DNA of 64,000 nt from a virus (lineage: Duplodnaviria; Caudoviricetes): positions 32,655-96,654 of IMG/VR virus record IMGVR_UViG_3300027542_000004; one strand, given 5' to 3'. Each line of letters opens with the position of its first letter. Within the stretch, counting starts at the first letter, position 1. The notes below the pieces were generated by a model. The model made no database searches, was not told where the DNA came from, and was given only the letters and a program-made list of their open reading frames with translations. The translations under genes were made by a program, and so were the position numbers. Of the stretch, positions 2,015 to 32,151 are shown piece after piece.

Positions 2015-2020
2015 TAGCGA

Positions 2021-2716
2021 GTTAAAAAGCCACGTAAGACAGATTATAACGCGAGAGTCACAAAGGCACTCAAGGGAAAGGGCGTACCTCACCTTGAAGA
2101 GCCGATGTACCGCGTATCCGCGTCGGCTTTTACAAAGGCTATAAGACGCGGCAAGGCATCGCAAGGCAGGAACGGCTGGATGGTTGACCTGCATAGCAAA
2201 AGCGAATACAAGCGGATGCGATGCTTTCTTACTCCGGACGGAAAGACAGGTGTAGCGATAAAACGCGATGGGGATGTAGTGTCTGTATTCTCCACCAGCG
2301 GAAAACGAGGCGCAATGGCAAAAATCATACCGTTTGCGGTCGCTAATGGTGGTCGCAAACTGGATTGTTATGCTTTCTCGGATGGCCGCAGTTCACTTCA
2401 CAACATGTACGGAAGATTCGGCGCAAAGGCTCACGGCAAAATGACCTTTGACCCGCAATATAATCCTGTTTTCCAACGCACGGCGCAGGCCAATCCCGGT
2501 ATGCGCAGACCCTCTCATGTCGTGGCGATGACGCTGCCGGGCAGTCTTGCCGGTGTCATGCGGGCTTACAACGCTGACAGGAAGATTGACCTTGGGCGCG
2601 TGAGGTCGTATAATGATTACGACAAGATGATGGATGACTTTCCGCGCATCTTGCACTACGCGGAAAGTCAAGCGGTGTCAGAGGCGCACTTGGCGGCGGT
2701 AAATAACCAACCCTAA
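2021..2716 (+). CDS. Hypothetical protein, GNAT-like fold resemblance; proposed GTT start (first ATG 2105)
   Basis: DGDVVSVF..AVANGGRKLDCY..L..MY..FG pattern; frame open back to TAG at 2015-2017. Confidence 0.55.
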   Translation, partial: VKKPRKTDYNARVTKALKGKGVPHLEEPMYRVSASAFTKAIRRGKASQGRNGWMVDLHSKSEYKRMRCFLTPDGKTGVAIKRDGDVVSVFSTSGKRGAMAKIIPFAVANGGRKLDCYAFSDGRSSLHNMYGRFGAKAHGKMTFDPQYNPVFQRTAQANPGMRRPSHVVAMTLPGSLAGVMRAYNADRKIDLGRVRSYNDYDKMMDDFPRILHYAESQAVSEAHLAAVNNQP

Positions 2717-2728
2717 CACTACAAGAAT

Positions 2729-3322
2729 ATGGCAAAGATTGAAGAAATCATCCCGTTCATCCTTTACTTTGAAGCCGGCGTAAACAAACGCTATCTTTCA
2801 CTTCCTCCCGAACAGATATTTGAGCAGGCGAAAAAGACGGGCTTCGCAAATGACCCCGACGATGCCGGCGGCGCGACCATGTGCGGTATCACGATAGCGA
2901 CCTACAAGGCGTACTGCAAGCGGAAAGGCTATCCCGTACCTACGGTGTTCAGCCTGCGTAACATCACATACAAGCGTTGGCGCGACGTACTCAAGACGCT
3001 TTTCTGGGACAGATGGAAAGCCGATGAAATCAAAAGCCAAGCCCTTGCGAACAACCTCGTCGATTGGGTGTGGGCAAGCGGCGTGAACGGCATCAAGATA
3101 CCGCAGAGGCTTCTCGGCGTGACACAGGACGGAATTGTCGGCCCAAAGACGATAGCCGCAGTCAACGCAGCCAACGAAGCGGAACTATTCACGAAGATTT
3201 ACGAAGCCCGCATCAATTTCGTGGATGGCATCGTGCGCAGAAAGCCGAGCCAGAAGAAATTCATCAAGGGCTGGAAACGACGTATCAACGCAATCACCCT
3301 ATCCGGGCTGAAATTCACATGA
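2729..3322 (+). CDS. Endolysin, glycoside hydrolase family 108 with peptidoglycan-binding domain
   Basis: FEAG...NDPDDAGGATMCGIT, DGIVGPKT, KFIKGWKRR. Confidence 0.9.
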   Translation: MAKIEEIIPFILYFEAGVNKRYLSLPPEQIFEQAKKTGFANDPDDAGGATMCGITIATYKAYCKRKGYPVPTVFSLRNITYKRWRDVLKTLFWDRWKADEIKSQALANNLVDWVWASGVNGIKIPQRLLGVTQDGIVGPKTIAAVNAANEAELFTKIYEARINFVDGIVRRKPSQKKFIKGWKRRINAITLSGLKFT

Positions 3323-3597
3323 TGACTTTACGCAAGAAATCCATAGATGACATTTACCGACAAGCTCAGTCAATCAAGGTTGAGCTTGCTGGTGGATGTC
3401 ATTCCAACTGGGTATCATTGATTGATAAAATCTTATATCGCTATATTGACAATATTAAAAAATCAGCGGCATACCTACATTGCAAAATAGCCAACCATAG
3501 CAGAGAATTAAACTTCAGCGCAGCCGACTTTATCAGGATTAGGAATATTGCTAATAGCCTACAAGTTTATTCCCCGGTTTACATGGGTCTGATATAA
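3319..3597 (+). CDS. Hypothetical protein
   Basis: ATGA overlap with endolysin stop. Confidence 0.6.
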   Translation: MMTLRKKSIDDIYRQAQSIKVELAGGCHSNWVSLIDKILYRYIDNIKKSAAYLHCKIANHSRELNFSAADFIRIRNIANSLQVYSPVYMGLI

Positions 3598-3609
3598 TCC
3601 AATACGACG

Positions 3610-4281
3610 ATGCCGAAGAAGCGAATTAGTAGCAAAACACCGCGCAAGCCCAAAGCCACACCCTCGTTTGATTACGAGAGTGAGGAATTTTTGTCGCAGG
3701 TCGATGCGCTTGCTTTTGAGGGCTTTTACAATACGGAAATTGCTGACGAACTGAACATTAGCCGATACGAGTTGGAAATGGCGATTTCACAATGCGAAAA
3801 ATTGCGCAACACGATAGCGTCTGCACGCGAGCGTGCGCGTGCGCGAGGCGCAGAAATGCCATCCCCGGCAATGTTTGCAAAAGTCTGGGCGAAGTGCAAG
3901 GGAAAGCGCACTCAGCTGATGAAAGAATTTGGAATCGGCTGGACGAAGCTGCAATCGTGGTTAGCGCAAGAGCCTATTTTCGTCGATATTATGGCGGAAC
4001 GCGACCTTGAATTTCTGGAACAGATAGACACCGCCAGTCGCATACTTGCGTTGGGCGGCGTAAAAGGAAAGGATGAATTTAAGGGCTGGAGTCGCTACCC
4101 TGACAGTTGGATGATACGCTACCATCTGAATACGCTTGGAAGACGCTACGGCTATGGCGAGAATCCCATACAGCCGGAAGTCGCCGATGACACTATTCCA
4201 AAGGATATTGAACAGGGTATCGACATTGATAGCTGGATTCGTCAAGAAGTGGAACAAAAGAAACGGGATAAAGAAGAATGA
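3610..4281 (+). CDS. Putative terminase small subunit (HTH)
   Basis: HTH-like EIADELNIS; directly upstream of and overlapping the large terminase. Confidence 0.65.
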   Translation: MPKKRISSKTPRKPKATPSFDYESEEFLSQVDALAFEGFYNTEIADELNISRYELEMAISQCEKLRNTIASARERARARGAEMPSPAMFAKVWAKCKGKRTQLMKEFGIGWTKLQSWLAQEPIFVDIMAERDLEFLEQIDTASRILALGGVKGKDEFKGWSRYPDSWMIRYHLNTLGRRYGYGENPIQPEVADDTIPKDIEQGIDIDSWIRQEVEQKKRDKEE

Positions 4282-7045: not shown

Positions 7046-7200
7046 TATCTGCCATTGTTGTCATATCTGGATGCGTCACGTCTGAGTTAAAGGCGTGGCG
7101 CATTGTTTTACGCTATCAGCGCAAAATCAGCGCGTTAAAGCAAACACTTTTATTAACAATAGTTAAAAGTAAGTATTTACTTTAATATTTTCGCTAAAAT

Positions 7201-7249
7201 ATTTGGTGGATAAAAGTAAAAGCATTAACTTTGCATCGTAATCAATAAC
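7201..7249 (+). promoter_or_regulatory. Bacteroidetes promoter plus leader; 49-bp perfect copy at 46157-46205
   Basis: ATTTG(-33)...TAACTTTG(-7)...CGTAATCAATAAC identical in both places. Confidence 0.85.
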
Positions 7250-7765: not shown

Positions 7766-7766
7766 T

Positions 7767-8560: not shown

Positions 8561-8617
8561 GTCAAGAGCAAGAAAATCACTAATTTTGCAGTACAACTAA
8601 ACGAGAAAAGTACAATC

Positions 8618-16135: not shown

Positions 16136-16639
16136 ATGGATATAAAGCAAAGAATAAAAGAGGCAGGGATGACCGTCAGTGAAGTGGCGGCTCGGATGCC
16201 ACGACCGGATGGAGGTGTGGGAATTGCACAGGCTTCATTATCTGCTATAATTAATGGCAATCCGACTATAAATAAATTGAAAGACATTGCCGATATTCTT
16301 GGTATATTGCTTTCGGAACTTGTTAAGGATGAATCTTCGTTAACTCAAAGGATTCACTGCCCTTATTGTGGAAAATCAATTCGTATAACATTGACAGCAG
16401 AAAAAGAAGAGCATCGGCATACACCGATAAGGAAAACTGTTGACTTACGTCTGAATACTGATGATGGTACAAAATATAGATATAAGCATCCCCATTCAAG
16501 AGAAGAAAGAATGGCTATTCTGGAACTTCAAACCTTACCGGGTGAGGATGGCATGGTTAGTGTCCTTAATACAAATCCCATTGATTCGGATGGAAACGAA
16601 GTATTTGATATAGAATATGACCGTTTGATGCCAATATAA
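16136..16639 (+). CDS. Xre-family HTH regulator with CPYCG motif
   Basis: SLSAIINGNPTINKLKDIADILG. Confidence 0.85.
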   Translation: MDIKQRIKEAGMTVSEVAARMPRPDGGVGIAQASLSAIINGNPTINKLKDIADILGILLSELVKDESSLTQRIHCPYCGKSIRITLTAEKEEHRHTPIRKTVDLRLNTDDGTKYRYKHPHSREERMAILELQTLPGEDGMVSVLNTNPIDSDGNEVFDIEYDRLMPI

Positions 16640-17410: not shown

Positions 17411-18685
17411 TTATTGTTCAGAAGTTATTTCCTCATTATCAATGGTCAACGCGCAGAAGCCTTTACAAGCTCCACGGAAACCATTGTGGTATTCTTTGGC
17501 AGTCATACGCTTCTTGTTTGGCAACTGCAAAATATCAATCGAAAGCAACATATCCTGACAGGCGACCATCAGTTTGCCATTCTCCCAGAACCATTCTCCG
17601 GGTGCGCGGAAGCCGCGAGGAATGTCAGTAAGACTTGCCTTGTGAATCTTCACATCGGTTGCGGAATCTGCCTCAAGCAACCTTACCGAAGTCCATGCAG
17701 TCGGCACTGACCCTGCGATAGCCGGGGTCTTTGGATATTGTTCGCCACAAATAACTGATGAATGGGCGCGTATGAAGTTATGAACGACTTCTGCGGAATC
17801 AGTCCAACGGATAAAGGCATCATTGCGGTAGAGCTTGGGCGCATGGCTCGGTTGAAAGAAATCGCATATAAGTTCTGACTGCGGAACTCCATTGCACGAA
17901 TGACCAATACGCTGGATTGCATCATCCATCATATCCGCACCGAAATTGCGAAGTCTGATATGCACTTCTTCCGCGCTTTCTTCCGGGCCTATGTAGATTC
18001 CGAGGTTGTTGATGATTTTGCCTGTATCCACACCCTTATCGATTACGAAAGTGGTGATGCCGGTCATCGCGCTTCCGTCCTTGATTGCGGATGTGATAGT
18101 GGATGCGCCCCGGTACATTGGAAGAAGCGATGAATGGAGATTGATGACTCCCCATTTAGGTATGCGGAACAATTCAGATGGTAATATGCAGTATTCAACC
18201 ACAACTCCCAACGTGGGATTCAGATTGCGGATTTTTTGAAGAAAAGATTCTGATTTAAGTTGAAGATGCGATGGCTGATATACAAGAAGACCTGCCTCTT
18301 CCGCATAAACACTGACAGGTGATGGGCAACACTTGTTTCCGCGACCGCAAGGCTTATTCTCCATAGTCACGACAGCAGCCACATCATATCCCTTTTCAAC
18401 GAGCATCTTTAGAGTCGGCACAGCGAAATGTCCGTTTCCGAAAAATACAATCCTGATATTATTCCGATTCACCGGCTTTTCTTGGTCATATTCGGGATAA
18501 GCCGATATTGCGTCTTCCGGAACAATGCTATATCCATCGGCCTGATTGACCTTAACTAAGTAATTGCCATCTTCATCCGGGCAAAGGATTCTGCACGGCA
18601 CGAAAAACTGATTTTCAAATTGGTCGCCGGCGCAATGCCCAACCACATTTACCAAATGACCAACGCGGTATCTTGGAGCTTTCAT
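17411..18685 (-). CDS. fmt: Methionyl-tRNA formyltransferase-like protein with extra N-terminal domain
   Basis: IVFFG..F, VVT..NKP.GRG, SPV, INLHSSLLP.YRGA, TGIT, DTG, APKL, LQLPNKKRM; ATGA overlap with upstream HTH gene. Confidence 0.85.
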   Translation of the reverse strand: MKAPRYRVGHLVNVVGHCAGDQFENQFFVPCRILCPDEDGNYLVKVNQADGYSIVPEDAISAYPEYDQEKPVNRNNIRIVFFGNGHFAVPTLKMLVEKGYDVAAVVTMENKPCGRGNKCCPSPVSVYAEEAGLLVYQPSHLQLKSESFLQKIRNLNPTLGVVVEYCILPSELFRIPKWGVINLHSSLLPMYRGASTITSAIKDGSAMTGITTFVIDKGVDTGKIINNLGIYIGPEESAEEVHIRLRNFGADMMDDAIQRIGHSCNGVPQSELICDFFQPSHAPKLYRNDAFIRWTDSAEVVHNFIRAHSSVICGEQYPKTPAIAGSVPTAWTSVRLLEADSATDVKIHKASLTDIPRGFRAPGEWFWENGKLMVACQDMLLSIDILQLPNKKRMTAKEYHNGFRGACKGFCALTIDNEEITSEQ

Positions 18686-18951
18686 TTTGATGAACCGGTC
18701 TGGATGTCGATACGTGCGCCGCACTGCGGACAGATGATGATAGCGGAATTTGGCTCAAGGTAATCTGTGAATAAAGAAGATACCGGCACTTCCAGCACTT
18801 TTGCAATTCGCTCAAGCGTGGATATGTTAGGATTGCCCTTTTCATTAACGATGTTGCCGAGTGTCTGAGGGGTGATTCCCATCTTTTCCGCGAGGCTTTT
18901 AAGGGTCATGCCCTTAGCAGCGACAATGTTCTTGATTCTGAATTTTGCCAT
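18682..18951 (-). CDS. Xre-family HTH regulator with CPQCG motif
   Basis: LAEKMGITPQTL...GNPNISTLERIA. Confidence 0.9.
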   Translation of the reverse strand: MAKFRIKNIVAAKGMTLKSLAEKMGITPQTLGNIVNEKGNPNISTLERIAKVLEVPVSSLFTDYLEPNSAIIICPQCGARIDIQTGSSK

Positions 18952-20183: not shown

Positions 20184-20753
20184 ATGAAATTACTGTTTTT
20201 CGATTTAGAAACGACCGGTACGCTGGTCAACAAGCACGGAATACACCAAATGTCCGGCTTCATCGTAATCGACGGCGAAATCAAGGAGAAATTCAATCTT
20301 CATGTTCGCCCCAATCCAATGGCGCAGATTGACCCCGCCGCATTAGAGGTGGCAGGTGTGACGGAAGCGCAAATCAAGGCTTACCCTCCGATGGAGCAGG
20401 TGTACGCCGGCTTCGTTGATAAGCTATCCCAGTACGTTGACCGCTACAACAAGAAAGACAAATTCTTTCTCGTCGGCTATAACAACGCATCATTCGACAA
20501 TCAGTTTCTCCGTGCGTGGTTCATTCAGAACGGCGATAAATACTTCGGCTCATGGTTTTGGGCAAACAGCATAGACGTGATGATAATGGCGACTCCTTAC
20601 CTCGCTGAACGTCGCGCCGAGATGGAAAACTTCAAACAAGGCACGGTCGCCAAAACCCTCGGCATAGTCGTGGAAGATGACAAGCTACACGATGCACTCT
20701 ACGACATCGAAATCTGCAAAGCCATCTACGACAAGGTTTGTGGAAAGTATTAA
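20184..20753 (+). CDS. DEDDh 3'-5' exonuclease (DnaQ-like)
   Basis: FFDLETTG, GYN..FD..FL, HDALYDI. Confidence 0.92.
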   Translation: MKLLFFDLETTGTLVNKHGIHQMSGFIVIDGEIKEKFNLHVRPNPMAQIDPAALEVAGVTEAQIKAYPPMEQVYAGFVDKLSQYVDRYNKKDKFFLVGYNNASFDNQFLRAWFIQNGDKYFGSWFWANSIDVMIMATPYLAERRAEMENFKQGTVAKTLGIVVEDDKLHDALYDIEICKAIYDKVCGKY

Positions 20754-20772
20754 CCCCTAACCATCATACCAA

Positions 20773-21555
20773 ATGAGAATCAAGAAGCAAAAATCGTTCA
20801 AGAACGGTACGGTGTACTGCCTTGAGCTGGAAGACGGAATGTTGGTTGAAACAACCGACACCTTTCTGCCTTACTACACCAAAGACGCAATCGGTCGCAA
20901 GCAGAATTTTCTTGACAACAATCAGCTCGGTAGTCGTGCGGAACGCTGGATGATAGGCGTATCCACAATGAGCGGATGCCCGGTTCATTGCAAATTCTGC
21001 GCTACCGGCAACATGAAGCGTTGGCGCAATCTTACGGCTGACGAAATTGTCGGTCAGGTGGAATTTGCCATCGCACAGGCAGGATTCAACCCGGCAGATG
21101 CCCGCGAGTTCAAAATCAACTACACGCGCATGGGTGAGCCTTTCTTGAACATCGACGCAGTTAAAGAAGCCATTGCCCGCATCACGGAAAAATATCCGAA
21201 CACACATCACTACGTTTCAACCATCGGCATCGCCGGCAGCGATTTCTCTTTTGTCAAGGGGAACGTGACGCTCCAGATAAGTCTGCATAGCTTTGACGAT
21301 GACAAGCGTAACTGGCTTATCCCTTACCCCAAGAAGATGACCATCGAAGAGCTGGGGCGCATACGCACGGAAAGCAACCTTAAAACGACCATCAACCTTA
21401 CACTCGTTGACGAGTCGGATTTCGATGCTGAAAAGCTGGCGAAGTATTTTGACAAGGATTATTTCTTTGTCAAGCTATCGCCCATCAATCCCAACAGCAT
21501 ATCGGAAAAGAACAATCTCGGTAACGGTGTTATCGAGGGCGTGAACATTGTATAA
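20773..21555 (+). CDS. RlmN/Cfr-like radical SAM protein lacking its C-terminal tail
   Basis: DG..VET, VS...GCPVHCKFC.TG, RNLTADEI..Q, MGEP, VST.G, ISLH. Confidence 0.85.
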   Translation: MRIKKQKSFKNGTVYCLELEDGMLVETTDTFLPYYTKDAIGRKQNFLDNNQLGSRAERWMIGVSTMSGCPVHCKFCATGNMKRWRNLTADEIVGQVEFAIAQAGFNPADAREFKINYTRMGEPFLNIDAVKEAIARITEKYPNTHHYVSTIGIAGSDFSFVKGNVTLQISLHSFDDDKRNWLIPYPKKMTIEELGRIRTESNLKTTINLTLVDESDFDAEKLAKYFDKDYFFVKLSPINPNSISEKNNLGNGVIEGVNIV

Positions 21556-21575
21556 CCACTTAACACAACAACCAC

Positions 21576-21695
21576 ATGGAAGCAATCAAGAAACAGCTTG
21601 AATCTATGGGTTACGATTATGCGGTAGCAATCGCAACCAAGTCGGAAATCGAAAACGGTGCTGCCTGCGGACAGCTCGCAATCATCGCCGAGTAA
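21576..21695 (+). CDS. 39-aa peptide carrying the RlmN-type AACGQL motif
   Basis: MEAIKKQLESMGYDYAVAIATKSEIENGAACGQLAIIAE; own A/C-rich leader; different frame from the upstream gene. Confidence 0.85.
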   Translation: MEAIKKQLESMGYDYAVAIATKSEIENGAACGQLAIIAE

Positions 21696-21758
21696 CCCGG
21701 AAACCGGCGGCTTGAGGAGTGCTTCGGTATTCTTCAAGTCGCCATTATCCTTGAAACG

Positions 21759-22223
21759 ATGGAAAAATTTCTATTGATACTCCCGGTGGTTGGTATGATT
21801 GTCGTTGTGGGCATCCCACTATGGGCATACCTGTCTTTCAAATCATACAAGCGGAAACTGCGCCGCGTCTATGACGAAATCAAGATTGGCGACCGCTACA
21901 AGTTTGAAATGCCGCCTCTACATCCGTTTGACGAATCTCATGTTTACAAGGCGACTATTATAGGCAAGACGTTAGCCCGTGGAAAATCCCCGTGGGTGCA
22001 ATATCGCTACGATGATATGCTATATCCGCAATACGAGAATAGATTTGCCAAGACCATCACAAAAGGTCTGATGGAAAGCCTTATCGAAGAGGCGAAGAAG
22101 CACATCGCCGAACACGAAAGCAACCCCAAATCAATGGTACATCCGGAGGTTCTTGCGCATTGGAAGAAAATCGCGCAAGGCATCCCTCCTTTCGGATACA
22201 AGGTCGTAGATGAAAAATTCTGA
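21759..22223 (+). CDS. Hypothetical membrane protein, possibly chimeric
   Basis: N-terminal TM segment; abrupt change of character at YDD/MLY. Confidence 0.55.
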   Translation: MEKFLLILPVVGMIVVVGIPLWAYLSFKSYKRKLRRVYDEIKIGDRYKFEMPPLHPFDESHVYKATIIGKTLARGKSPWVQYRYDDMLYPQYENRFAKTITKGLMESLIEEAKKHIAEHESNPKSMVHPEVLAHWKKIAQGIPPFGYKVVDEKF

Positions 22224-22242
22224 CTTAATATCATAAAACAAA

Positions 22243-23373
22243 ATGAAATTTACCATCAACAGTAAGGCTCTTTTGAGCCGTCTGGTTGCCGCCGGCAAAG
22301 CCGTAAGCAACCGACCCACGATTTCCATTCTGGGCAATTTCATGTTCGCCCTTGATGGGAAGACCGTCACAATCACCGCATCCGATACCGACAACGTGGT
22401 AATATCGCGCATTGAAGCCAACGATGCCGAGGGTGCTGGTAGTGTCTGCATCGATGCAAAGCGCGTCACGGAACTGCTCAAGGCAATGCCGGATTGCCCC
22501 GTGGTGTTTGACATCAACGATTCAACCCACGCAACCATCATCCGCTACACCAACGGAAAATACAATCTGTCTGGTCTGCCCACCATAGACTATCCCATTG
22601 GCGAGGCTGACGAAACGGAAGTCAAGGGCGTATTCACAATGCCAGCTTCGCAGATTCTCAAGGCACTGGATGTTGTCGGCTTCGCTACATCCAACGATGA
22701 ACTCCGCCCCATGCTGAACGGAGTGTATTGGGATATTACGGAAGATGCCGTTACATTCGTGGCAACCGACACCCATGTACTTGCAAAGTATCGTAGTACG
22801 CAGACCGCCCCCGGCAAGGTCATGAGCTTCAATCTGCCCAGTAAGTCAATCGCGCTTATCCGTGCGTTCATCGGAAAGCAGAGCGACATAAAGCTGACGG
22901 TCAGCGAAAGATTCGTCATCTTTGAGGGTAGCGACTTCAAGGTGCGCTCTACGCTTTATAATGGAATGTACCCGAACTACAACCGCGTTATTCCCGTCAA
23001 TCAGCCCATCTCTATCACGGTTGACCGCATGGACTTCGCTAACGCTATCACACGTGTTGCCATCTGCGCTGACGCACAGACACCGGTGCTTCGCCTCAAG
23101 ATTGCAGACGGAAAGATTGACATCGTGGCGCAGGACATCAGCTTCAACATCGGCGGCGAGGAGAAAGTGACGTGCGACTACAACGGAACACCGCTTGAAA
23201 TCGGATTCAGTTCAATCTACCTCAAGGGCGTACTTAACGCGATGAACACGCAGAACGTCGTGATAAAGCTGGCGGAGGCAAGCCGACCCGGATTGTTCCT
23301 ACCCGCTGAAAACGACGAATACGGCGAACTTACGCTTTTGTGTATGCCCATAAATATCCAGCAAACGACTTAA
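22243..23373 (+). CDS. dnaN: DNA polymerase III beta sliding clamp
   Basis: 376 aa; R..LNGV, VATD.H.LA, YPNY.RVIP, IGF...YL. Confidence 0.93.
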   Translation: MKFTINSKALLSRLVAAGKAVSNRPTISILGNFMFALDGKTVTITASDTDNVVISRIEANDAEGAGSVCIDAKRVTELLKAMPDCPVVFDINDSTHATIIRYTNGKYNLSGLPTIDYPIGEADETEVKGVFTMPASQILKALDVVGFATSNDELRPMLNGVYWDITEDAVTFVATDTHVLAKYRSTQTAPGKVMSFNLPSKSIALIRAFIGKQSDIKLTVSERFVIFEGSDFKVRSTLYNGMYPNYNRVIPVNQPISITVDRMDFANAITRVAICADAQTPVLRLKIADGKIDIVAQDISFNIGGEEKVTCDYNGTPLEIGFSSIYLKGVLNAMNTQNVVIKLAEASRPGLFLPAENDEYGELTLLCMPINIQQTT

Positions 23374-23672
23374 TGGGAAAAGAAAGAGGCGATTTAGCCG
23401 TAGGCAGAAAGTTCAATTTCAGAAACCATCACATCTATGCTTGTCAACATGGGATTGATACCCAAGAGATGCTTAAACAGGTTATAAAGCAGGAAAAGGA
23501 ATGGTGCGAAAGGAGCATATTCCTTGCAATTCAGCTCCATAATCTGATTGAATATGACGTAGAGGTGGATGATAATTATGAAGTGACTATTCATGCACGG
23601 CTTCGGGGCGTTGTGCCGCCCGAAAAGATGGAAGATGTAAGACGCCAGTCTAATGAAGAAAGCAATAAATAA
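23373..23672 (+). CDS. Hypothetical protein
   Basis: TAATG coupling. Confidence 0.6.
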   Translation: MGKERGDLAVGRKFNFRNHHIYACQHGIDTQEMLKQVIKQEKEWCERSIFLAIQLHNLIEYDVEVDDNYEVTIHARLRGVVPPEKMEDVRRQSNEESNK

Positions 23673-23796
23673 AATCAAAGACATCCTATTTGGGATTTTC
23701 GCAATTATCGTCTGTCTTATTCTTGCCGTCGTGCTTTGGCTGACGGGAGATAAGATGGATGATGATTACGACCCGTGGGATTGCTATCAGTAAGCT

Positions 23797-24252
23797 ATGC
23801 AGAGAATCATTAAATTTCGCGGAAAATCCGTTGCTGACGGTACATGGGTCTATGGCGACTTAATCCACATGAAAGGACGCAAGGTTGCGATATGGCCCAC
23901 GGAAGAGAAATACGATGGTGGCGCGATTGAGGTTATACCCGCTTCGGTGGGTCAGTACACCAATTCACGCGACTGCCTCAAGAAAGAAATCTACGAGGGT
24001 GACATTGTGCGCCAGAAATGGGAAACCACAGTGATAGATGAACACGATGACGCATATTCAGCAAAAGGAACGCAGACCGGAATTGTGGTGCTACGCACGA
24101 GGGGAGTCTGCATGTCACCCTGCCTGAAAGAAAACGACCTTACGGAAGATGCGCTGCTGACAAAGAATGTACCTGTTACCGGGTGGCGTTCTGAAATCAT
24201 CGGCAATACAACCGACAATCCCTCACTATTTGAGGAAATCTGTAACCCTTAA
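23797..24252 (+). CDS. YopX-family protein
   Basis: IKFRGK....WVYGDL, VGQYT, IYEGDI, IIGN..DNP.L. Confidence 0.85.
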   Translation: MQRIIKFRGKSVADGTWVYGDLIHMKGRKVAIWPTEEKYDGGAIEVIPASVGQYTNSRDCLKKEIYEGDIVRQKWETTVIDEHDDAYSAKGTQTGIVVLRTRGVCMSPCLKENDLTEDALLTKNVPVTGWRSEIIGNTTDNPSLFEEICNP

Positions 24253-24271
24253 CCAATTAACCCCAACTGCA

Positions 24272-24973
24272 ATGAAAAAGTACATCGGTACGAAGACGCT
24301 TAACGCCGAGCCTATGACAAAGGGCGAGGCTTATGACCGTTCTTTACTGCGTGGTGGAATAACACCCGTAGAGCGTGAAATCCTCGGCTATCATGTCGTT
24401 TATCCTGACGGCTATGAAAGCTGGTCGCCCAAAGACGTATTTGATGCGGCCTACAATGTCGCCGACACATTACTTGACCGCCTTAACATCGAATACAAAG
24501 AGCTTGACAAGAAAGCCGGCAAAATCGTTGAGTTCAGACTGACGGAAGCCTATAAGAATCTGCGCGACACCGACCGCGCCATGCTTGATGTTCAGTTCGA
24601 CACCATGATTAGCTATCTGAGCATCCTCGGTTGTCGCTCTACATCAGTGGAAACAGGTCAGGGCGGCTTCTGCGGTCTTGACTTCGGCACGGCAATCCAT
24701 CTCCTTGAACGTGGATACGTCATCCGTCGCAGCGGATGGAACGGCAAGGATATTGTCGTGTTCAAGCAAGTGCCGTCAAGCATCAAGAGCGACATCATTC
24801 CCAACATGCAATCCCTGCCCCTCAAGGCTAAAGAACTTATCATGGCCGGAAACAAGCGTATAGACTACACCTCGCAGTGTCTTATCTATAACACGAAGAC
24901 TGGTCGCGCCGATAGTTGGGTTCCATCTATCAGCGACGTGTTCGCCCATGACTGGGAGCTTGTAGCCGACTAA
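24272..24973 (+). CDS. Multidomain protein with C-terminal DUF2829/Tad2-like domain
   Basis: DFGTAI..L..G...RRSGWNGK and WVPS.SD.FA.DW; N-terminal GY.V.YPDGYESWSPK. Confidence 0.75.
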   Translation: MKKYIGTKTLNAEPMTKGEAYDRSLLRGGITPVEREILGYHVVYPDGYESWSPKDVFDAAYNVADTLLDRLNIEYKELDKKAGKIVEFRLTEAYKNLRDTDRAMLDVQFDTMISYLSILGCRSTSVETGQGGFCGLDFGTAIHLLERGYVIRRSGWNGKDIVVFKQVPSSIKSDIIPNMQSLPLKAKELIMAGNKRIDYTSQCLIYNTKTGRADSWVPSISDVFAHDWELVAD

Positions 24974-25071
24974 TCAATCATCCTATCTACCACGTGTAGA
25001 AAAGGAAACGGCGGCGTAGGCCGCGACAAGTCTGCGCCGCCTGCTTTTACCAATCACTAACATCACAAGAA

Positions 25072-25212
25072 ATGAGCAAGCAAGAACTTATAGAAGCATT
25101 GGAAAGTATGCCCGACGATGCCGTACTCTTTGTGGATGGCGGCTTTTACAATCTGGTTGAGGTCAGCAATGTAAAATACGACCCGTCGCAGAATATTATC
25201 GTCATCGAATAA
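25072..25212 (+). CDS. Small hypothetical protein (46 aa)
   Basis: MSKQELIEALESMPDDA... read by hand. Confidence 0.55.
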   Translation: MSKQELIEALESMPDDAVLFVDGGFYNLVEVSNVKYDPSQNIIVIE

Positions 25213-25216
25213 AGTT

Positions 25217-25648
25217 ATGACCGAGGAAGAAAAACGCGAGGCTTACGTCCGCACGGTGTTTGCCGGAAATGATGGCGACGTGTTCACGCGAAGCGACCTC
25301 CGCGCCTACATTGAAGAAGCATGGTCTGCCGGCTATGATGAGGGTGCGCGTGATTTTGGCGACACGGTAACGAATTATCCATTTCCATTAAGCGTATGGC
25401 CAACGCCCCTTTCCCGTTTTCAAGCCGATAAGCTGGCTAAAGAATTTGAAGCCCTTGACGAGATATGCAAGGACAGCGGATGTCGGGATGCGCTTATAAA
25501 AACGCTTTTTGAAGAAGCGGAAAAACAAGCCGAAGCGTTTATGCCACGTGACCTTATCGGCTCGGTTGAATACTTCGGCGACAAGTTAAAACTATTAAGA
25601 CTGAAATCAAATGAACGAACAGACGGAAAACAGCAAAGCAACTCTTAA
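25217..25648 (+). CDS. Hypothetical protein
   Basis: Operon ORF. Confidence 0.6.
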   Translation: MTEEEKREAYVRTVFAGNDGDVFTRSDLRAYIEEAWSAGYDEGARDFGDTVTNYPFPLSVWPTPLSRFQADKLAKEFEALDEICKDSGCRDALIKTLFEEAEKQAEAFMPRDLIGSVEYFGDKLKLLRLKSNERTDGKQQSNS

Positions 25649-25946
25649 AGACTGGCTAACATTCATCATCTTCACAATAGTAATCCTTTCATTAGGTATC
25701 ATAGCCGGTTTTTCAGCGGGAAGAAAACACCCGGCAGCATCGGTTAAGGATGAATGGCTGTCAGATGTGCGCAAGGAGGTTAATCTCTTGGAGTCATCTT
25801 TCAAGGAAGCGGAAGAAGAATATCAGTTTGGCATCGAACTGCGCGACTCCATCATTACCGCCATGAAGCGCGAAATCAGAAAAGGCGACAACGCCGAAGT
25901 TCCTATCAAAGTAAATATCAACATTACCGATGATAATAGCAAATAA
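25611..25946 (+). CDS. Hypothetical membrane protein
   Basis: Single TM segment. Confidence 0.6.
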   Translation: MNEQTENSKATLKDWLTFIIFTIVILSLGIIAGFSAGRKHPAASVKDEWLSDVRKEVNLLESSFKEAEEEYQFGIELRDSIITAMKREIRKGDNAEVPIKVNINITDDNSK

Positions 25947-26379
25947 AGACCTTGTAAGTGGTGATTACGTCAATCTTGATGCTGCTATTGCCTTGAGTAA
26001 GGTTGGCTATGACGTGCCGACGCATACTCATTACACCGGATATAAGGGTTACGGAAGCGTCAGCCTTACATCCAACACTGAAAAGCTGACAGGTGTAGGC
26101 AGTATGGTTGATAGACCCATCTTGCAAAAGGCGGTGGAATGGCTGCGCGAGCGTCGCAACATCTGCCTACGCATCAACTACGTCATGCAGACGCGCAAGT
26201 GGTTTTTCGACTACCTGAATATGAAAGATGGGAGCTATGACGATAGCACATCCACCTACGATGACACAACGGGCTATTACGATAGTTACAACGATGCCGT
26301 CAACGCCGGAATAGTTGCCATCTGCGAACACATCAAGGACAATGAAGATACGACAGGCGAAGAAAATCCTATTGGGTAA
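25930..26379 (+). CDS. Hypothetical protein, related to N-terminal part of 36871-37674
   Basis: P.L..A..WLR....I.. and Y..YE/NDA motifs. Confidence 0.65.
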   Translation: MIIANKDLVSGDYVNLDAAIALSKVGYDVPTHTHYTGYKGYGSVSLTSNTEKLTGVGSMVDRPILQKAVEWLRERRNICLRINYVMQTRKWFFDYLNMKDGSYDDSTSTYDDTTGYYDSYNDAVNAGIVAICEHIKDNEDTTGEENPIG

Positions 26380-26548
26380 GAATACATCCCGCGACTGCTA
26401 CCGCCGTATGCGCCCCGCCTATGAACGCGAAGACGGCACTATGGTATTTCCATCATGGCATGACATTCCACGGATAGCAAGGGTGAACAAACGACTACTC
26501 AGATACATTAACCGATTAAGCAATGAAGACAAAGAAAAACTTCTTTAA
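26342..26548 (+). CDS. Hypothetical protein
   Basis: MKIRQAKK start. Confidence 0.55.
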   Translation: MKIRQAKKILLGKNTSRDCYRRMRPAYEREDGTMVFPSWHDIPRIARVNKRLLRYINRLSNEDKEKLL

Positions 26549-27356
26549 GGGTAAATCCTTATACCGACCCACCGGCAAGGCTGGCGAATATTCCGCTTGG
26601 GCTTGCAACTTCTATACCGGGTGTTCAAATAACTGTTCATACTGCTACTGCAAGCGTGGCGTTATGAGCCATGTATGGAGCGAAGAGCCGATGTTTAAAA
26701 AATGCTTCAAGGACAACGACCATGCCATAGCGGTGTTTGAAAAGGAAATGCTCGCAAACATCGACGAACTGCGTAAGACGGGCATCTTTTTCAGCTTCAC
26801 TACCGACCCCATGATACCCGGCAAGACGCTTGAGCTTACGATGGAAGCGGTCAGCCTTGGGCTGCGTAATGACGTGCCGGTGCAGATACTTACCAAACGT
26901 GCGGATTGGCTTGATGCCGAGACGTGGAAAGCCATGTGCGCTACCATCAATCCCGACTACAAGAAAATCGCCATTGGCTTCACACTGACAAGGCGTGATG
27001 ACCTTGAGCCGGGTGCAAGTCCGCATACGGAACGCATAGCCGCCATGAAGCGTTGTCACGAACTGGGATGTCACACTTTCGCAAGTATTGAGCCGATTGT
27101 CGATATAGCCAATTCGGAATGGGCGATGAGTGATGCCTATCCCTACTGCGAACTGTTCAAGGTTGGTCTGATGAGCGGCGGCGCGAAACCCGACAAGCAC
27201 GAACTGAAAACACTTGTTGACAGATGGAATAGCACACTTGACAAGTCAGGCAAGAAGATATATTGGAAGCAGAGCGTAGTTGACTATCTGGGCGATGATT
27301 TCACGTTCTGGATGGACTCCTGCGTAGATGCCGACTACAACATATTCGACTATTAG
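26523..27356 (+). CDS. Radical SAM protein, spore-photoproduct-lyase-like family
   Basis: YTGCSNNCSYCY, TTDP, ILTK, LEPGAS..ER, SIEP. Confidence 0.8.
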   Translation: MKTKKNFFKGKSLYRPTGKAGEYSAWACNFYTGCSNNCSYCYCKRGVMSHVWSEEPMFKKCFKDNDHAIAVFEKEMLANIDELRKTGIFFSFTTDPMIPGKTLELTMEAVSLGLRNDVPVQILTKRADWLDAETWKAMCATINPDYKKIAIGFTLTRRDDLEPGASPHTERIAAMKRCHELGCHTFASIEPIVDIANSEWAMSDAYPYCELFKVGLMSGGAKPDKHELKTLVDRWNSTLDKSGKKIYWKQSVVDYLGDDFTFWMDSCVDADYNIFDY

Positions 27357-27405
27357 TATTGTTTTAAGGTAAATAAGATTGTTATTATAAATTGTACTTT
27401 TGCGG

Positions 27406-27436
27406 AGCGTGTCGTTGTGAAACGGTGCGCTTTTTT
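27406..27436 (+). terminator. Intrinsic terminator
   Basis: AGCGTGTCGTT-GTGA-AACGGTGCGCT plus T-run. Confidence 0.7.
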
Positions 27437-27560
27437 CGTTCTATTCCGTAGAAAGTTACGACCAAATAAATAAAGTCGTGAGTGTGCGTTTCCTTAATAA
27501 TGTGGTTGCTTTATTTAGTCGTAGTTTTGCGTAGAATACTTAAACCCCAAACTACATCCA

Positions 27561-28307
27561 ATGAAAGCTAAAATCTTTGCAAAACTAAAACAGGAGTATT
27601 CCTCTCTTGGGTTAGGCGATGAATATCTGATGTCAAAAGCCGATTCCCTTGCAGCGACCGGTCTTGTGACTGACGATAACATCGATGCTGTCGTGGCTTG
27701 CCAGCGTAAGGAGCTTGAGGGTCTTCAGAAAGCCAACGATAAGCGCGTCACTGATGCGCTTGAAAAAGAGCGTAAGAAGCATGAAGAAGAAACTCGCAAA
27801 AAGGAGCAGGAAGCCGAAGAAGCCCGTCGCAAAGCCGAGGAAGAAGCCGCCGCCAAAAAGAAAGGCGAGCATACCGACCCGGTTACAAACCCCGACGTTG
27901 AAGCCCTCCGCAAGCAGGTGGAAGAGCTGACCGCCGCCGGCAAGAAGCGCGACGAAGAATATGCGGCCAACCTGAAAACGCTTACCGAATCACGTGACAG
28001 TCTTGGAAAGCAGGTCAAGGAACTTGTTGACAAGAACGCCGCATCGGAAGCAGCCGCAGCCAAGGCAGCACGCAATGCGATGATAATGGCGAAAGCCAAA
28101 GAGTTGGGCGTTCCCCAGTGGCGTATCGACGAGGGCTTCACAATCGCGGAAGACGCGAGCGAGGAGGTCATCACCGAAACGCTGACAAAGGTTGCGAACA
28201 ATATCAACACAAACATCCTGCCGGGTAGTCGTGGCGGATTCCCCCTCGCCGGCAACGAGCCGACTAAGGAAGACCTCGCTTCGATAGCTGCAAGCCTTGT
28301 TAAGTAA
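27561..28307 (+). CDS. Capsid scaffolding protein
   Basis: Coiled-coil, E/K/A-rich; upstream of capsid genes. Confidence 0.75.
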   Translation: MKAKIFAKLKQEYSSLGLGDEYLMSKADSLAATGLVTDDNIDAVVACQRKELEGLQKANDKRVTDALEKERKKHEEETRKKEQEAEEARRKAEEEAAAKKKGEHTDPVTNPDVEALRKQVEELTAAGKKRDEEYAANLKTLTESRDSLGKQVKELVDKNAASEAAAAKAARNAMIMAKAKELGVPQWRIDEGFTIAEDASEEVITETLTKVANNINTNILPGSRGGFPLAGNEPTKEDLASIAASLVK

Positions 28308-28329
28308 CAACTAAACCCCAACGAGAATT

Positions 28330-28776
28330 ATGAAAAATGACATCTCACCCAACAAGGAAACGGTTGTCTTCGGTAATGATTCCTCAGTAATCCGCAAGTA
28401 CATTGCCGGCATCGCCGGTGGTCGTACACTGGACTGCTCGGATTTTGTCGATGACACTGTTCTCGCCGGCCACGTCATCATCAAAAAGGCCGACGGAAAG
28501 TATGCCCCGATGCCCGTCATCGCGGCTGTTCCCGCGAAGCCCGCACAGGGCGAAAACCCTACTGTTGCGGCTCAGCCCGCCAAGTACGGCACACTCCCTA
28601 CCGGCGCATCCTACGCCGGCGTTCTCTATCGCTCAATCAGTAAGAAAAACCCCGCTGCTTCCATTATGACGATAGGTATTGTCAATCCCGACATGACCCC
28701 CTATCCCATGACAGACATCCTGACCGCGTTCACGGCTGCCTGCAAAATTTCCTTTGAAAAGGACGAAGAAGCATAA
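28330..28776 (+). CDS. Head decoration/fibre protein
   Basis: GGRTLD...AGHVII; between scaffold and capsid. Confidence 0.7.
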   Translation: MKNDISPNKETVVFGNDSSVIRKYIAGIAGGRTLDCSDFVDDTVLAGHVIIKKADGKYAPMPVIAAVPAKPAQGENPTVAAQPAKYGTLPTGASYAGVLYRSISKKNPAASIMTIGIVNPDMTPYPMTDILTAFTAACKISFEKDEEA

Positions 28777-28791
28777 AAACCGAGTATCTGA

Positions 28792-29880
28792 GTTAAACAG
28801 TCATTCTATTTCGATTACGCGCAGAAATACTTCCCCGGCCTCGTTCTGGCCGTGGTTGAACGTCTGAACGAAAAGCGCAACAACTCCGCGCAGACGTATC
28901 TCTACAAAGAGAAACTTCGCCCCCAGTTCTCGCTTGATGGTCGCTGGGCTTCCATTCTTGCCGAATACACCCGTGTAGCCGCCGACGTTGTGGCACTTGA
29001 CTCCGAGCTTCCGCTCAAGAGCCGTGACACGCTGGAGGTTGCTTCCGGCACTATCCCCAAGATAGGTATGAAGCTCTACCTGACCGAAAAGCAGATGAAG
29101 GACGTTGATTCGATGATTGCACAGGGTCTTCCCCTTGAAACCATCATCAACAACATCTTCGCCGACACCCCCCGTTGCATCGAGGGCATCTGGGAGCGCA
29201 TCGAAGACATCTTCCTTTCCGAGCTTTCGTCCGGCGTGGGCATTTCCGAACGTAACAACGGCACCGGCGTGCGCATCAACATGAACTTCTATGAGGCCAA
29301 TCAGTTCCTCGTATCGGCTCTGTGGAGCGCAACTACCGCCACACCGCTTGACGACATTCAGAAAGTCGTTGACAAGTCCATCGAAGACTCCAACACCATC
29401 ATCGACGCATACGCCGACGATACCGCCCTCCAGCTTCTTTACAAGAACGGTCAGGTGCGTGCGCAGTTTGCCTTTGACCAAGGCATCGCCATGACTGCAT
29501 CAACAGCCATCCCCGTGCTTGACCTTTCCAAGCTCCAGCAGCTTTTCCTCACCAAGTGGAACATCCGTCTGCACCGCGTTTCGCGCCGTGTGAAGACCGA
29601 GCTTAACGGAGTTAAGCAGAACCACAACCCGTGGAAGAAAGGCACTATTACCTTTGTCTGCGATGAAGAGCTTGGCTCGCTTGTATGGACTAACGTCGCC
29701 GAAGTCAACCGCCGTGTTGATGGTGTAGTCTATCAGGTAGCCGACGAATACATCCTTGCAAAGAAGTATTCCAAGACAGACCCCCTCCGCGAGTTCACCG
29801 CTTCCGAGGCTATGGTTGTCCCCGTGTTGAACAACGTTGACCGTATCTATACGCTCGACTCTCAGACTGTTCAGGAATGA
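28792..29880 (+). CDS. Major capsid protein (GpE-like); proposed GTT start (first canonical start GTG 28852)
   Basis: AADVVALDS.LPLKSR, IPKIG, DP.REFT...A.VVPV; frame opens right after TGA at 28789-28791. Confidence 0.85.
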   Translation, partial: VKQSFYFDYAQKYFPGLVLAVVERLNEKRNNSAQTYLYKEKLRPQFSLDGRWASILAEYTRVAADVVALDSELPLKSRDTLEVASGTIPKIGMKLYLTEKQMKDVDSMIAQGLPLETIINNIFADTPRCIEGIWERIEDIFLSELSSGVGISERNNGTGVRINMNFYEANQFLVSALWSATTATPLDDIQKVVDKSIEDSNTIIDAYADDTALQLLYKNGQVRAQFAFDQGIAMTASTAIPVLDLSKLQQLFLTKWNIRLHRVSRRVKTELNGVKQNHNPWKKGTITFVCDEELGSLVWTNVAEVNRRVDGVVYQVADEYILAKKYSKTDPLREFTASEAMVVPVLNNVDRIYTLDSQTVQE

Positions 29881-30215: not shown

Positions 30216-30220
30216 TACCG

Positions 30221-30562: not shown

Positions 30563-30566
30563 AAGC

Positions 30567-30896
30567 ATGTACTACGCACCCCACATATTGCAGAAGCGCA
30601 TTATCGCCGAGGAGAAGTCGGATGAATTTGGAAGACCTATTCCAGAAGAAGCTGGCGACTCTTGGGTGGAAGTGTGCCGATGCAGATGTGACCACAATGG
30701 GGATAAAGAAGTCAAGATGCCCGATGGCACGGTCGTAACGCCGGAATATCATGTTGTCCTTGAGGACAACGAACCGGATATTGAAGTCGGCGATTACGTG
30801 CGTTGTCTGAAAGCAGACGGAACTATCCGTGGCGAGGGTCGTGTCATTAAGCCGAAAACATTAAACTATCTGCCTTATGCGGAGATCTATCTGTAA
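30567..30896 (+). CDS. Head closure/stopper protein
   Basis: Position; DEFGRPI, CRCRCD. Confidence 0.65.
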   Translation: MYYAPHILQKRIIAEEKSDEFGRPIPEEAGDSWVEVCRCRCDHNGDKEVKMPDGTVVTPEYHVVLEDNEPDIEVGDYVRCLKADGTIRGEGRVIKPKTLNYLPYAEIYL

Positions 30897-31185
30897 GTTT
30901 GACTTTAGCGACGTGCGCCCGGCTTTAGCTCGCTTTCATCGTGATATGCGTAAGCAAGTTGAGCGCGTCGGTCAGGAAGCAGTGGATTACGCGGTTGAGC
31001 ATGGCGATTACCATGATGTCACCGGCGAAACGCGCAGAAGCAATCGTTACAAGGTTGATGCCAACAACAATCTGACCATCTACAACGAGTGCGACCACGC
31101 CGCAGAACTTGAGGCAAATGGCAAAGATGTAATAGAAAATGCGGCCTTATTCGCAGAACAACGACTTAAAGAGATTTTTGAATGA
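30877..31185 (+). CDS. Neck/tail completion protein (HK97 gp10-like)
   Basis: Position; Y.DVTG..R.S. Confidence 0.6.
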   Translation: MRRSICKFDFSDVRPALARFHRDMRKQVERVGQEAVDYAVEHGDYHDVTGETRRSNRYKVDANNNLTIYNECDHAAELEANGKDVIENAALFAEQRLKEIFE

Positions 31186-31580
31186 TTACCACCACTGACG
31201 CAGCAAACATCCTTTACACCGCCTGCAAAAATATCTTTGGGATGCCGGTCTATCAGGCTGGCAACATTCCCGCCGGTAAAGTAGGCAAGGATGGCCGTGT
31301 AGTCATCCATGCAAAAGAGTATACCCCCGGCTCTACATGGAAGAAAGGATTCATCGAAGTCAATTTATTTGCCGCTGATACGCCACACGGCAACGCCGAT
31401 TTAACCCGGCTTAACGAGCTTGAACGCATGGCGACCAAATTCCTCAAGGATATGGGATGGCATGACGGAACGGCTTACCGCTTTGAAGTGGCTTCTACGA
31501 TACCGATGGAAAATGCCAATCTGAAAGCCCACTACATTAACACCAAAGTGCTTTTCAAAGTGCTTAATACAATGGAATAA
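31182..31580 (+). CDS. Tail terminator-like protein
   Basis: Position before tail tube. Confidence 0.6.
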   Translation: MITTTDAANILYTACKNIFGMPVYQAGNIPAGKVGKDGRVVIHAKEYTPGSTWKKGFIEVNLFAADTPHGNADLTRLNELERMATKFLKDMGWHDGTAYRFEVASTIPMENANLKAHYINTKVLFKVLNTME

Positions 31581-31605
31581 TTAACCCCTTAACACCCATA
31601 CACGA

Positions 31606-32151
31606 GTTGAAAATTCACCTAAGATTTGCGCAGTAGGCATCAAAAAGCTGTACTATGCTGACCCCAGCAAAGTGACCGCAGACCTTACCGGCGCACTCCT
31701 TGCCGCCCTGCTCAAAGACGCGGCCACAAAGGAGGTCAAAAACATCCATCAGGACACGTGGACTATCGAGGAAAGCGAGTCTTCGCAGGATGGATACCGC
31801 AACCAGCTTACCGGTTCTATCTACCGCATGGGAACAAAGACTATGGGCGACGTGACGTTCAACTGGACTATCGGCCAGTACGACTACGCCACTAAAGCCG
31901 AGTTCCTTGGTGGTGTCGTTACCGGAAAGTCGTGGAAACGTCCTCGCGGCATCGTCGAAATCCACAAGACCCTCATCGCGCTGACCGAAGACAATCAGTA
32001 TTGCGTACTTCCCTACGCCAACGTAGCCGGTCGCGAGGCCAACACTGACGGTGCTGTCGGCATCGGCATTGTCGGCACTGCAATGGAGCCGGAAAACGAT
32101 GCGGTTTCGTCCGAATACTGGTTCGACTCTTCCGAGGTCGTGACCGCGTAA
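31606..32151 (+). CDS. Major tail tube protein; proposed GTT start (first canonical start GTG 31672)
   Basis: NIHQDTW, Y.NQLTG..Y, GQYDY.TK; frame open back to TAA at 31582. Confidence 0.75.
   Translation, partial: VENSPKICAVGIKKLYYADPSKVTADLTGALLAALLKDAATKEVKNIHQDTWTIEESESSQDGYRNQLTGSIYRMGTKTMGDVTFNWTIGQYDYATKAEFLGGVVTGKSWKRPRGIVEIHKTLIALTEDNQYCVLPYANVAGREANTDGAVGIGIVGTAMEPENDAVSSEYWFDSSEVVTA

Follow-up and report, generated by a model that had tools for sequence, protein, structure and literature searches.

GUU start codons and a candidate valine-anticodon initiator tRNA in a prophage of gut Muribaculaceae

We analysed 64,000 nucleotides (nt) of a Caudoviricetes genome (bases 32655-96654 of the 96,654-nt IMG/VR viral record IMGVR_UViG_3300027542_000004, labelled G000), hereafter called the window. 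Comparison with relatives indicates that three genes of this stretch, encoding the major capsid protein, the tail tube protein and a protein of unknown function (gene 1), begin at GTT. Upstream of the window we identified a tRNA that combines an initiator-like body with the anticodon AAC, and inside it a gene for a diverged methionyl-tRNA formyltransferase (Fmt) paralog. We propose, with a probability of about 0.8, that the phage-encoded tRNA is an initiator that starts chosen genes at GUU, giving an orthogonal initiation with valine or formylvaline (fVal). The prophage is present in two isolates, Lepagella muris NM04_E33 and Muribaculaceae Isolate-036, and in one metagenome-assembled genome (MAG); its hosts are Muribaculaceae.

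Three genes begin at GTT

The original prediction had singled out three reading frames that appear to start at YGA-GTT-RAA (Y, pyrimidine; R, purine) with no ATG there, and the codons and coordinates of all three are exactly as it gave them. The features concerned are:

2021-2716, plus strand: gene 1, a 231-amino-acid phage protein of unknown function (PHROG 2563 region), read from GTT 2021
2019-2025, plus strand: GA-GTT-AA context of the gene 1 start, complementary to the tRNA anticodon loop UUAACUU
28792-29880, plus strand: major capsid protein (Phage_cap_E, PHROG 29), read from GTT 28792
28790-28796, plus strand: GA-GTT-AA context of the capsid start; the GA is invariant in 13/13 GTT-type capsid loci and the bases farther upstream are variable
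31606-32151, plus strand: tail tube protein (PHROG 14600), read from GTT 31606
31581-31610, plus strand: tube leader TTAACCCCTTAACAC followed by GA-GTT-GA, a leader-like motif before the tube GTT

Gene 1 follows the stop codon TAG 2015-2017 as CGA GTT AAA (2018-2026), and its first canonical start, ATG 2105, lies 28 codons past the GTT. The capsid frame opens with TGA GTT AAA (28789-28797), 20 codons before the first canonical start, GTG 28852. The tube frame has an in-frame TAA at 31582, opens with CGA GTT GAA (31603-31611) and reaches its first canonical start at GTG 31672. Counted from the last base of the preceding gene's stop codon, the GTT lies at a distance of 7 (gene 1), 16 (capsid) and 26 nt (tail tube). 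Every other plus-strand gene in the window has a canonical start.

We searched IMG/VR with the capsid protein, which yielded 16 loci, and added six loci from bacterial genomes. GTT preceded by GA is the first aligned codon in 10 of the 16 IMG/VR loci (72-100% amino acid identity), and the other six (40-64% identity) have ATG in the same column. Among the bacterial genomes, the start is GTT in three (Lepagella muris, Muribaculaceae Isolate-036 and the MAG), ATG in the same column in two and ATG one codon upstream in one. The 20 residues N-terminal to the position of GTG 28852 are conserved as protein, and the column of that GTG is occupied by ATC, ATT, GTT or GTC in 9/16 IMG/VR loci. Two other capsid starts were considered and rejected. 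A start at ATC 28786 followed by readthrough of TGA does not fit because the TGA comes after the ATC in the window and the other genes have no equivalent; a start at CTG 28846 does not fit because the protein is conserved N-terminal to it.

The tube protein is 43% identical to the tail protein of Bacteroides phage BS-TP2, whose ATG falls five codons downstream of the GTT column, and a homolog at 56% identity (L011) has its ATG two codons downstream of that column. The PHROG 14600 profile match begins about three residues past the tube valine, well upstream of GTG 31672. The GA-GTT is kept in all nine close loci (77-99% amino acid identity), among which a 3-nt indel just after the GTT preserves the reading frame. 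In four of these loci (L007-L010) the column of GTG 31672 is GTA, ATT or ATC. We rejected ATT 31624 as the tube start, since five of the nine close relatives have GTT there.

For gene 1 we aligned 11 of 14 database homologs, omitting three short or partial ones. Eight of the 11 extend N-terminally to a methionine at or upstream of the window's valine, and in these eight the column of the window's M30 is isoleucine (seven) or valine (one). The start context is identical in 9/9 close loci, and an allele at 44% identity in another viral record (G003) has AGA GTT AAG at the same place. Database calls for two close relatives (P0007 and P0008) begin at the M30 column, an internal methionine. For gene 1, a search of the ESM Atlas returned viral hypothetical clusters only, and a single-protein scan returned close relatives only.

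Two checks proposed by the original prediction thus came out in its favour. Distant homologs carry ATG or methionine at or near the GTT column of the capsid, tube and gene 1, and GA is invariant before every GTY start (GTC or GTT) that we saw in related phages. The starts that it had named as speaking against it, GTG 28852, GTG 31672 and ATG 2105, lie in columns that vary among relatives.

Its argument that in-frame stops exclude readthrough also holds. Gene 1 and the capsid gene are in frame with the preceding open reading frame (ORF), with two stops in between. We likewise rejected fusion to the preceding gene by readthrough or hopping: besides the two stops, the frame relation is changed in one relative (L007) and distant homologs have a TAATG overlap. 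The GTT sites are identical across contigs of several metagenomes and in two isolate genomes, which excludes an assembly error. Four metatranscriptome runs cover parts of the capsid-tube region; no contig spans either start by 31 nt, and these runs are uninformative on editing and transcript ends.

YGAGTTRAA is not an enriched motif. It occurs four times in the window against 2.6 expected, no excess over chance, and the case therefore rests on comparison with relatives. The fourth copy (7083) marks no gene start and lies in the loop of an imperfect 10-bp hairpin 3' of the portal gene (7059-7105). The loop is TGAGTTAAA and is followed by a T-rich run, so that the element looks terminator-like; chance may explain why it carries the heptamer of the GTT starts. 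A practical consequence of the GTT starts is that gene callers truncate or miss the capsid, the tube and other genes of these phages.

An initiator-like tRNA with a valine anticodon

The original prediction had suggested that GUU starts might need a special tRNA, with GAC or AAC as its anticodon, and a scan of the full record does find one. ARAGORN, run on the whole record, identified a tRNA with the anticodon AAC at G000:C1:31756-31829, 826-899 nt upstream of window position 1. This tRNA(AAC) scores 48.6 bits with the Rfam tRNA model. Its best full-length matches in the host genomes G011 and G012 are tRNA-Met(CAT) genes, and no host tRNA-Val is among the matches. Their C1 mismatch, A11:U24 and three G:C pairs identify the matched host genes as the host initiators. 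Phage tRNA and host initiator are identical at 50 of 57 positions (88%) outside the anticodon arm and at 4 of 17 inside it. This distribution indicates that the body of the phage tRNA is descended from a host initiator tRNA and that its anticodon arm has been replaced.

The structure of the tRNA family was checked on 12 distinct sequences. The cloverleaf is well kept (94.8% of cells paired), and 11 of 21 pairs show compensatory change. Canonical initiators are distinguished by the lack of a Watson-Crick pair at 1:72 and by A11:U24. Position 1:72 is unpaired in 12/12 sequences of the family, with C1 opposite a variable U, C or A; in the host initiators C1 stands opposite U or C. A11:U24 (alignment columns 11/25) is likewise present in 12/12. 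The anticodon is not CAU, and the elements A35, C36 and A73 would be expected to give the phage tRNA a valine identity.

About 10 nt before the 5' end of tRNA(AAC) lies TAATTTAGCATCGTAA (G000:31725-31745), a one-mismatch copy of a promoter-like element found elsewhere in the record. In the window, promoter-like -7 elements of the form TAnnTTTG, often ending in ...TTTGCATCGT, are present at 7217-7240, 8585-8600 and about 42520-42535; we take TAnnTTTG to be the Bacteroides-type -7 motif.

The tRNA accompanies the GTT starts. It is present in 4/5 GTT-capsid viral records, the fifth contig ending about 11 kb before the expected site, and in 3/3 GTT-capsid host genomes, and it is syntenic with the GTT genes in all relatives. 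It is present in 0/5 ATG-capsid records and absent from the ATG-capsid genome G014; record G008 has a GAC variant.

The start codon tracks the anticodon

We identified a fourth GTT start outside the window, at G000:32256, about 430 nt downstream of tRNA(AAC). It opens a 66-codon ORF for a basic protein with TGA GTT and is preceded by a near-copy of the tube leader. When every ORF of the record was screened for GA-GTY before the first canonical start, these four sites and no more were returned. All four GTY starts in this AAC record are GTT.

A pattern scan for the tRNA family with the anticodon left free matched 85 IMG/VR stretches, of which 80 were listed. Among the matches listed, 70 loci have the anticodon GAC and 10 have AAC. 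Covariation was scored in the 51 of these 80 loci that have a homolog of the small basic gene, the other 29 having no match to it. The first codon after the conserved GA tracks the anticodon in 51/51 loci (GAC with GTC, 43/43; AAC with GTT, 8/8), and none of the 51 has a canonical start upstream. This pattern is what a cognate initiator would predict, and it is unlike what would be expected from reading by the host fMet-tRNA.

The GAC-type record G008 contains two further small basic genes with the candidate start CCGA GTC AGA, kept in 7/7 and 5/5 loci, and its capsid gene starts with ATG. Its portal gene was considered as a further GTC start and rejected, as a downstream ATG fits better. The three small arginine-rich GTC-start proteins of G008 (L063; 24756, 25609 and 26617) end in GLSGG or GLSNG, which suggests a shared C-terminal processing or packaging signal.

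Start context and leader

GA occupies positions -2/-1 at every GTY start seen, whereas just 4 of 69 ATG ORFs in this record have it there. Within the tRNA loop UUAACUU, the bases U38-U37, C36-A35-A34 and U33 complement GA-GUU-R, which makes an extended pairing plausible. It is a reasonable inference from these sequences that such mRNA-loop pairing occurs, perhaps offsetting the lack of a purine at position 37 and of the anticodon-stem G:C pairs.

The original prediction had noted that the tube leader resembles the leaders of ATG genes, and a leader like TTAACCCCTTAACAC indeed precedes ATG genes too. The window has seven copies where 1.14 would be expected; every copy is on the plus strand, and most lie at junctions between genes. 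As it also precedes ATG genes, the leader marks initiation regions in general. Neither gene 1 nor the tube has a Shine-Dalgarno-like run next to its GTT.

A lineage-specific formyltransferase paralog

A further gene of the window may belong to the same system:

17411-18685, minus strand: Fmt-like formyltransferase, 424 amino acids, ATG at 18685, with Pfam domains Formyl_trans_N and Formyl_trans_C

The Fmt-like protein matches TIGR00460 (fmt) with 189.1 bits over positions 2-305 of 315, below the equivalog cut-off of 201.5, and E. coli Fmt (PDB 1fmt/2fmt) with an E value of 2e-37. It is 35-41% identical to host Fmt. Residues N182, H184 and D220 and the motif SLLPxYRGA are invariant with the host Fmts, and the GRG loop is kept. 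A fold search with the predicted structure (mean predicted local distance difference test score, pLDDT, 72.9) ranked Met-tRNA formyltransferases, among them the tRNA complex 2fmt, in all of the first 11 places, with template modelling (TM) scores of 0.80-0.84 on the target. An extra N-terminal domain of about 75 amino acids, predicted to be a small beta-strand domain, and a C-terminal tail are both absent from host Fmts.

The gene is present in 5/5 GTT-capsid viral records versus 0/5 ATG-capsid relatives, two of the latter rated complete, and in all three GTT-capsid host genomes. An alignment-based scan of IMG/VR found it on seven contigs, all seven of this lineage; a single-protein scan returned close relatives only. 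The Fmt homolog that the original prediction invoked is thus real and lineage-specific. The suggestion that such starts may need it fares less well: G008, the one GAC-type record searched, does without the gene. We consider it somewhat better than an even bet that the paralog serves the phage initiator tRNA. Among the 50 larger phage ORFs, scanned with Pfam or PHROGs, we identified no initiation factor, peptide deformylase or valyl-tRNA synthetase (ValRS).

Genes for helix-turn-helix proteins of the Cro/C1 type (16136-16639 and 18682-18951, minus strand) flank a segment of low G+C content (38%) that holds the Fmt-like gene and is possibly a regulatory or moron region. Fmt-like alleles of phages with 88-100% identical capsids share just 56-73% identity.

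A proposed GUU initiation channel

We propose that the prophage operates its own initiation channel, through a tRNA derived from the host initiator with a replaced anticodon arm and the anticodon AAC. Host ValRS would recognise the identity elements A35, C36 and A73 and charge this tRNA with valine. The 1:72 mismatch and A11:U24 would bar it from elongation and make it a formylation substrate, and it would enter the peptidyl (P) site on GUU codons with GA just upstream. The channel would serve four genes: those for the small basic protein (G000:32256), gene 1, the major capsid protein and the tail tube protein.

The phage Fmt paralog would most likely formylate Val-tRNA(AAC). Valine is a poor substrate for ordinary Fmt, so the phage enzyme would raise the flux towards the capsid and tube proteins, the two most abundant in the virion. 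Through the GA that precedes GUU and the purine that follows it, the pairing may extend to U37/U38 and U33. GUU-start proteins would be made only when the phage tRNA is present, and virion production might thereby be gated or timed; the translational lock on lytic genes that the original prediction envisaged would be of this kind. We hold both the extended loop pairing and the gating role to be less likely than a service of the Fmt paralog to the tRNA.

A fuller version is offered more tentatively, with the odds leaning against it. It holds that a family of Bacteroidales gut phages may have reassigned the start codon of chosen genes by means of a valine-charged initiator tRNA whose UU-NAC-UU loop, pairing with GA-GUY-R, would replace the checkpoint of three G:C pairs, together with, in the lineage with GUU on capsid and tube, a valine-adapted Fmt paralog with an added RNA-binding-like domain. 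Such a private channel would lock virion synthesis to phage-controlled expression of the tRNA, and could sustain late translation when the host initiator tRNA is attacked or limiting.

Several observations weigh against the proposed initiator. The AAC-type anticodon stem (A-U, G-C, U-G) is without three consecutive G:C pairs, and these are likewise absent from the GAC-type stem (G-C or A-U, then C-G, U-G). A U at tRNA position 37, as in the loop UUAACUU, is highly unusual. An E. coli initiator deprived of the three G:C pairs is unable to initiate (PMC6393288). In the GAC lineage, the three genes with GTC starts seem to be paralogs, and the covariation is limited to two lineages, so that it represents essentially one evolutionary switch and few independent events. 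The lack of an Fmt-like gene in G008, the sole GAC-type record searched, implies that the enzyme is dispensable for the system in general and may have another role. Finally, GTT makes up 27% of the valine codons in long phage ORFs versus 15.5% in a small sample of host genes, so that by codon usage alone a role of the tRNA as an elongator supplement is compatible.

To our knowledge, every known cellular and phage system initiates proteins with a methionine initiator tRNA. If our proposal is right, this prophage would provide the first natural exception, with a valine-anticodon initiator tRNA, matched starts and its own formyltransferase. It would add a layer of phage gene control parallel to stop-codon recoding and represent an evolved answer to the bottlenecks that charging and formylation create in engineered orthogonal initiation. 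The claim is open to direct test, as two cultured Muribaculaceae isolates carry the prophage.

Alternative explanations

The alternative that survives best accepts that the tRNA initiates at GUU and holds that the Fmt-like enzyme is unrelated to it, acting as a general boost to or replacement of host formylation or on another substrate. G008, with GTC starts and a tRNA and no Fmt-like gene, fits this account, as do the sub-threshold TIGR00460 score (189.1 vs 201.5 bits) and the extra N-terminal domain. Set against it are the retention of the catalytic N/H/D residues, the SLLP motif, the GRG loop and the C-terminal tRNA-binding domain, the Met-tRNA formyltransferase folds (2fmt among them) at the top of the structural matches, and the restriction of the enzyme to the lineage with GTT on its most abundant proteins. 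Moreover, formylation of a valine-charged initiator is a known bottleneck in the engineered system. On balance we find this alternative rather unlikely.

Near-cognate initiation at GUU by the host fMet-tRNA, with tRNA(AAC) as a mere elongator supplement, is improbable. It has a precedent in Streptomyces sigR, which has a natural GTC start and an inferred GTT in 2/34 species (PMC5472188), and it would suit both the higher GTT share of the phage and the lack of the initiators' three G:C pairs. Yet near-cognate starts are weak by design, whereas GUU here heads the capsid and tube genes, and neither gene 1 nor the tube has Shine-Dalgarno-type help at its GTT. An elongator supplement would also leave unexplained why 1:72 stays mismatched in 12/12 sequences despite the variable base 72, why A11:U24 is kept, and why the tRNA matches the host initiator and not a tRNA-Val. 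Nor does the host fMet-tRNA give any reason for the third base of the start codon to follow the phage anticodon in all 51 scored loci.

That the genes begin at ATG 2105, GTG 28852 and GTG 31672, the upstream open stretches being untranslated leaders, is what an ordinary gene caller would choose, and P0007 and P0008 are indeed called from the M30 column. This reading is hardly credible given that the upstream stretches are conserved as protein, that the ATG of distant homologs lies at the GTT column, that close relatives have ATC, ATT or GTA where the window has the two downstream GTGs, and that in the tube the 3-nt indel keeps frame and the PHROG 14600 match begins upstream of GTG 31672.

Least credible of all is that the pattern arose from a sequencing error, from editing of the RNA to AUG, from stop recoding of ATC TGA GTT, or from gene decay in a defective prophage: both the window and its relatives do have an ATC 6 nt ahead of the capsid GTT, but it is followed by TGA in the window and has no counterpart at the tube or gene 1, the genes are intact at full length, and the GTT is identical across metagenome contigs and isolates and kept at 72-77% amino acid identity while nearby third positions change.

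Other features of the record

Several further features of the record are listed here as side observations. The protein encoded at window 24167-24973 combines a Tad2-like (Thoeris anti-defence 2) domain with a crAss001_48 domain. An RNase T-like exonuclease, two radical SAM proteins and a homolog of the DNA polymerase III beta clamp are encoded at 20184-23373 and 26523-27356. An Amidoligase_2 protein is followed by a class-II glutamine amidotransferase-like protein at 46240-47768. The helicase-like ORF at 38387-40235 has split ResIII, DEAD and SNF2 matches and adjoins a NUMOD4/HNH homing-endonuclease-like ORF; an endonuclease gene may have inserted here.

At the right end of the record, a tRNA-Ser(CGA) (62374-62461, minus strand) adjoins a 408-codon stop-to-stop frame (62702-63928, minus strand), and the tRNA-Ser(CGA) region is probably an attachment site. 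Outside the window, G000:C1:236-1633 and 22880-29302 hold a second integrase and, on the minus strand upstream of tRNA(AAC), a 2140-amino-acid tape measure protein. The stretch upstream of the tRNA also holds NAMPT/NAPRTase-like, primase-helicase and three DNA methylase ORFs. The record may hold two adjacent elements.

Comparison with known systems

Our search of the full-text literature, with subscription journals and supplements outside the coverage, turned up no case of an initiator tRNA with an altered anticodon that a phage encodes naturally. The closest parallel is man-made. An engineered E. coli initiator tRNA(AAC) initiates solely at GUU, with valine and fVal, and is limited by charging and formylation, a limit that overexpression of ValRS and Fmt relieves (Hutvagner et al., 2021, bioRxiv 10.1101/2021.05.25.445580; Scopelliti et al., 2025, bioRxiv 10.64898/2025.12.21.695813). 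The phage system shares with it the initiator body, the AAC anticodon and the GUU start, and would also share the Val/fVal N-terminus and the gain from extra formyltransferase. The engineered tRNA keeps the E. coli anticodon stem, whereas the phage system is natural and phage-borne and has a remodelled anticodon arm with U37/U38 and without the three G:C pairs. It also differs in its conserved GA before the start and in its own diverged Fmt paralog.

Among natural cases, Streptomyces sigR has a GTC start that is weakly read by the ordinary initiator, repressed by IF3 and reliant on a strong Shine-Dalgarno sequence (PMC5472188). It is the sole natural GTY start that we found in print. The phage genes resemble sigR in having a natural GTY start conserved across species, and differ from it in that a dedicated cognate tRNA is encoded alongside and in that the genes include those of the most abundant virion proteins.

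The nearest phage tRNAs in GenBank are the tRNA-Met genes of Erwinia and Salmonella Ounavirinae phages (36 records, 82-83% identity), and no relative of tRNA(AAC) with a valine anticodon was found among GenBank phages. The Ounavirinae tRNAs have a similar body and the same CCAGT 5' strand of the anticodon stem. Unlike tRNA(AAC), they have, in the aligned case of phiEa21-4, the anticodon CAT and an A1 that can pair with U72, and they are annotated as reading AUG. The annotated tRNA-Met of Erwinia phage phiEa21-4 (L163, 22490-22564), 83% identical to the AAC tRNA with A1 opposite U72 and A11:U24, may itself be an unusual initiator-like tRNA.

Compared with canonical tRNA(fMet), the phage tRNA has the same 1:72 mismatch, A11:U24, G2:C71 and C3:G70; it differs in its anticodon (AAC or GAC, not CAU), in having no three G:C pairs and in its expected valine identity. 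Compared with canonical Fmt, the phage enzyme has the Fmt fold and motifs, and differs in scoring below the equivalog cut-off and in its extra N-terminal domain.

Some gut phages with suppressor tRNAs recode stop codons in late and structural genes, which suggests a control of timing. The system described here is similar in that a phage tRNA would alter codon reading and the altered codon stands in late or structural genes. It differs in that a start codon would be reassigned through an initiator-type tRNA, whereas in those phages stop codons are reassigned in elongation.

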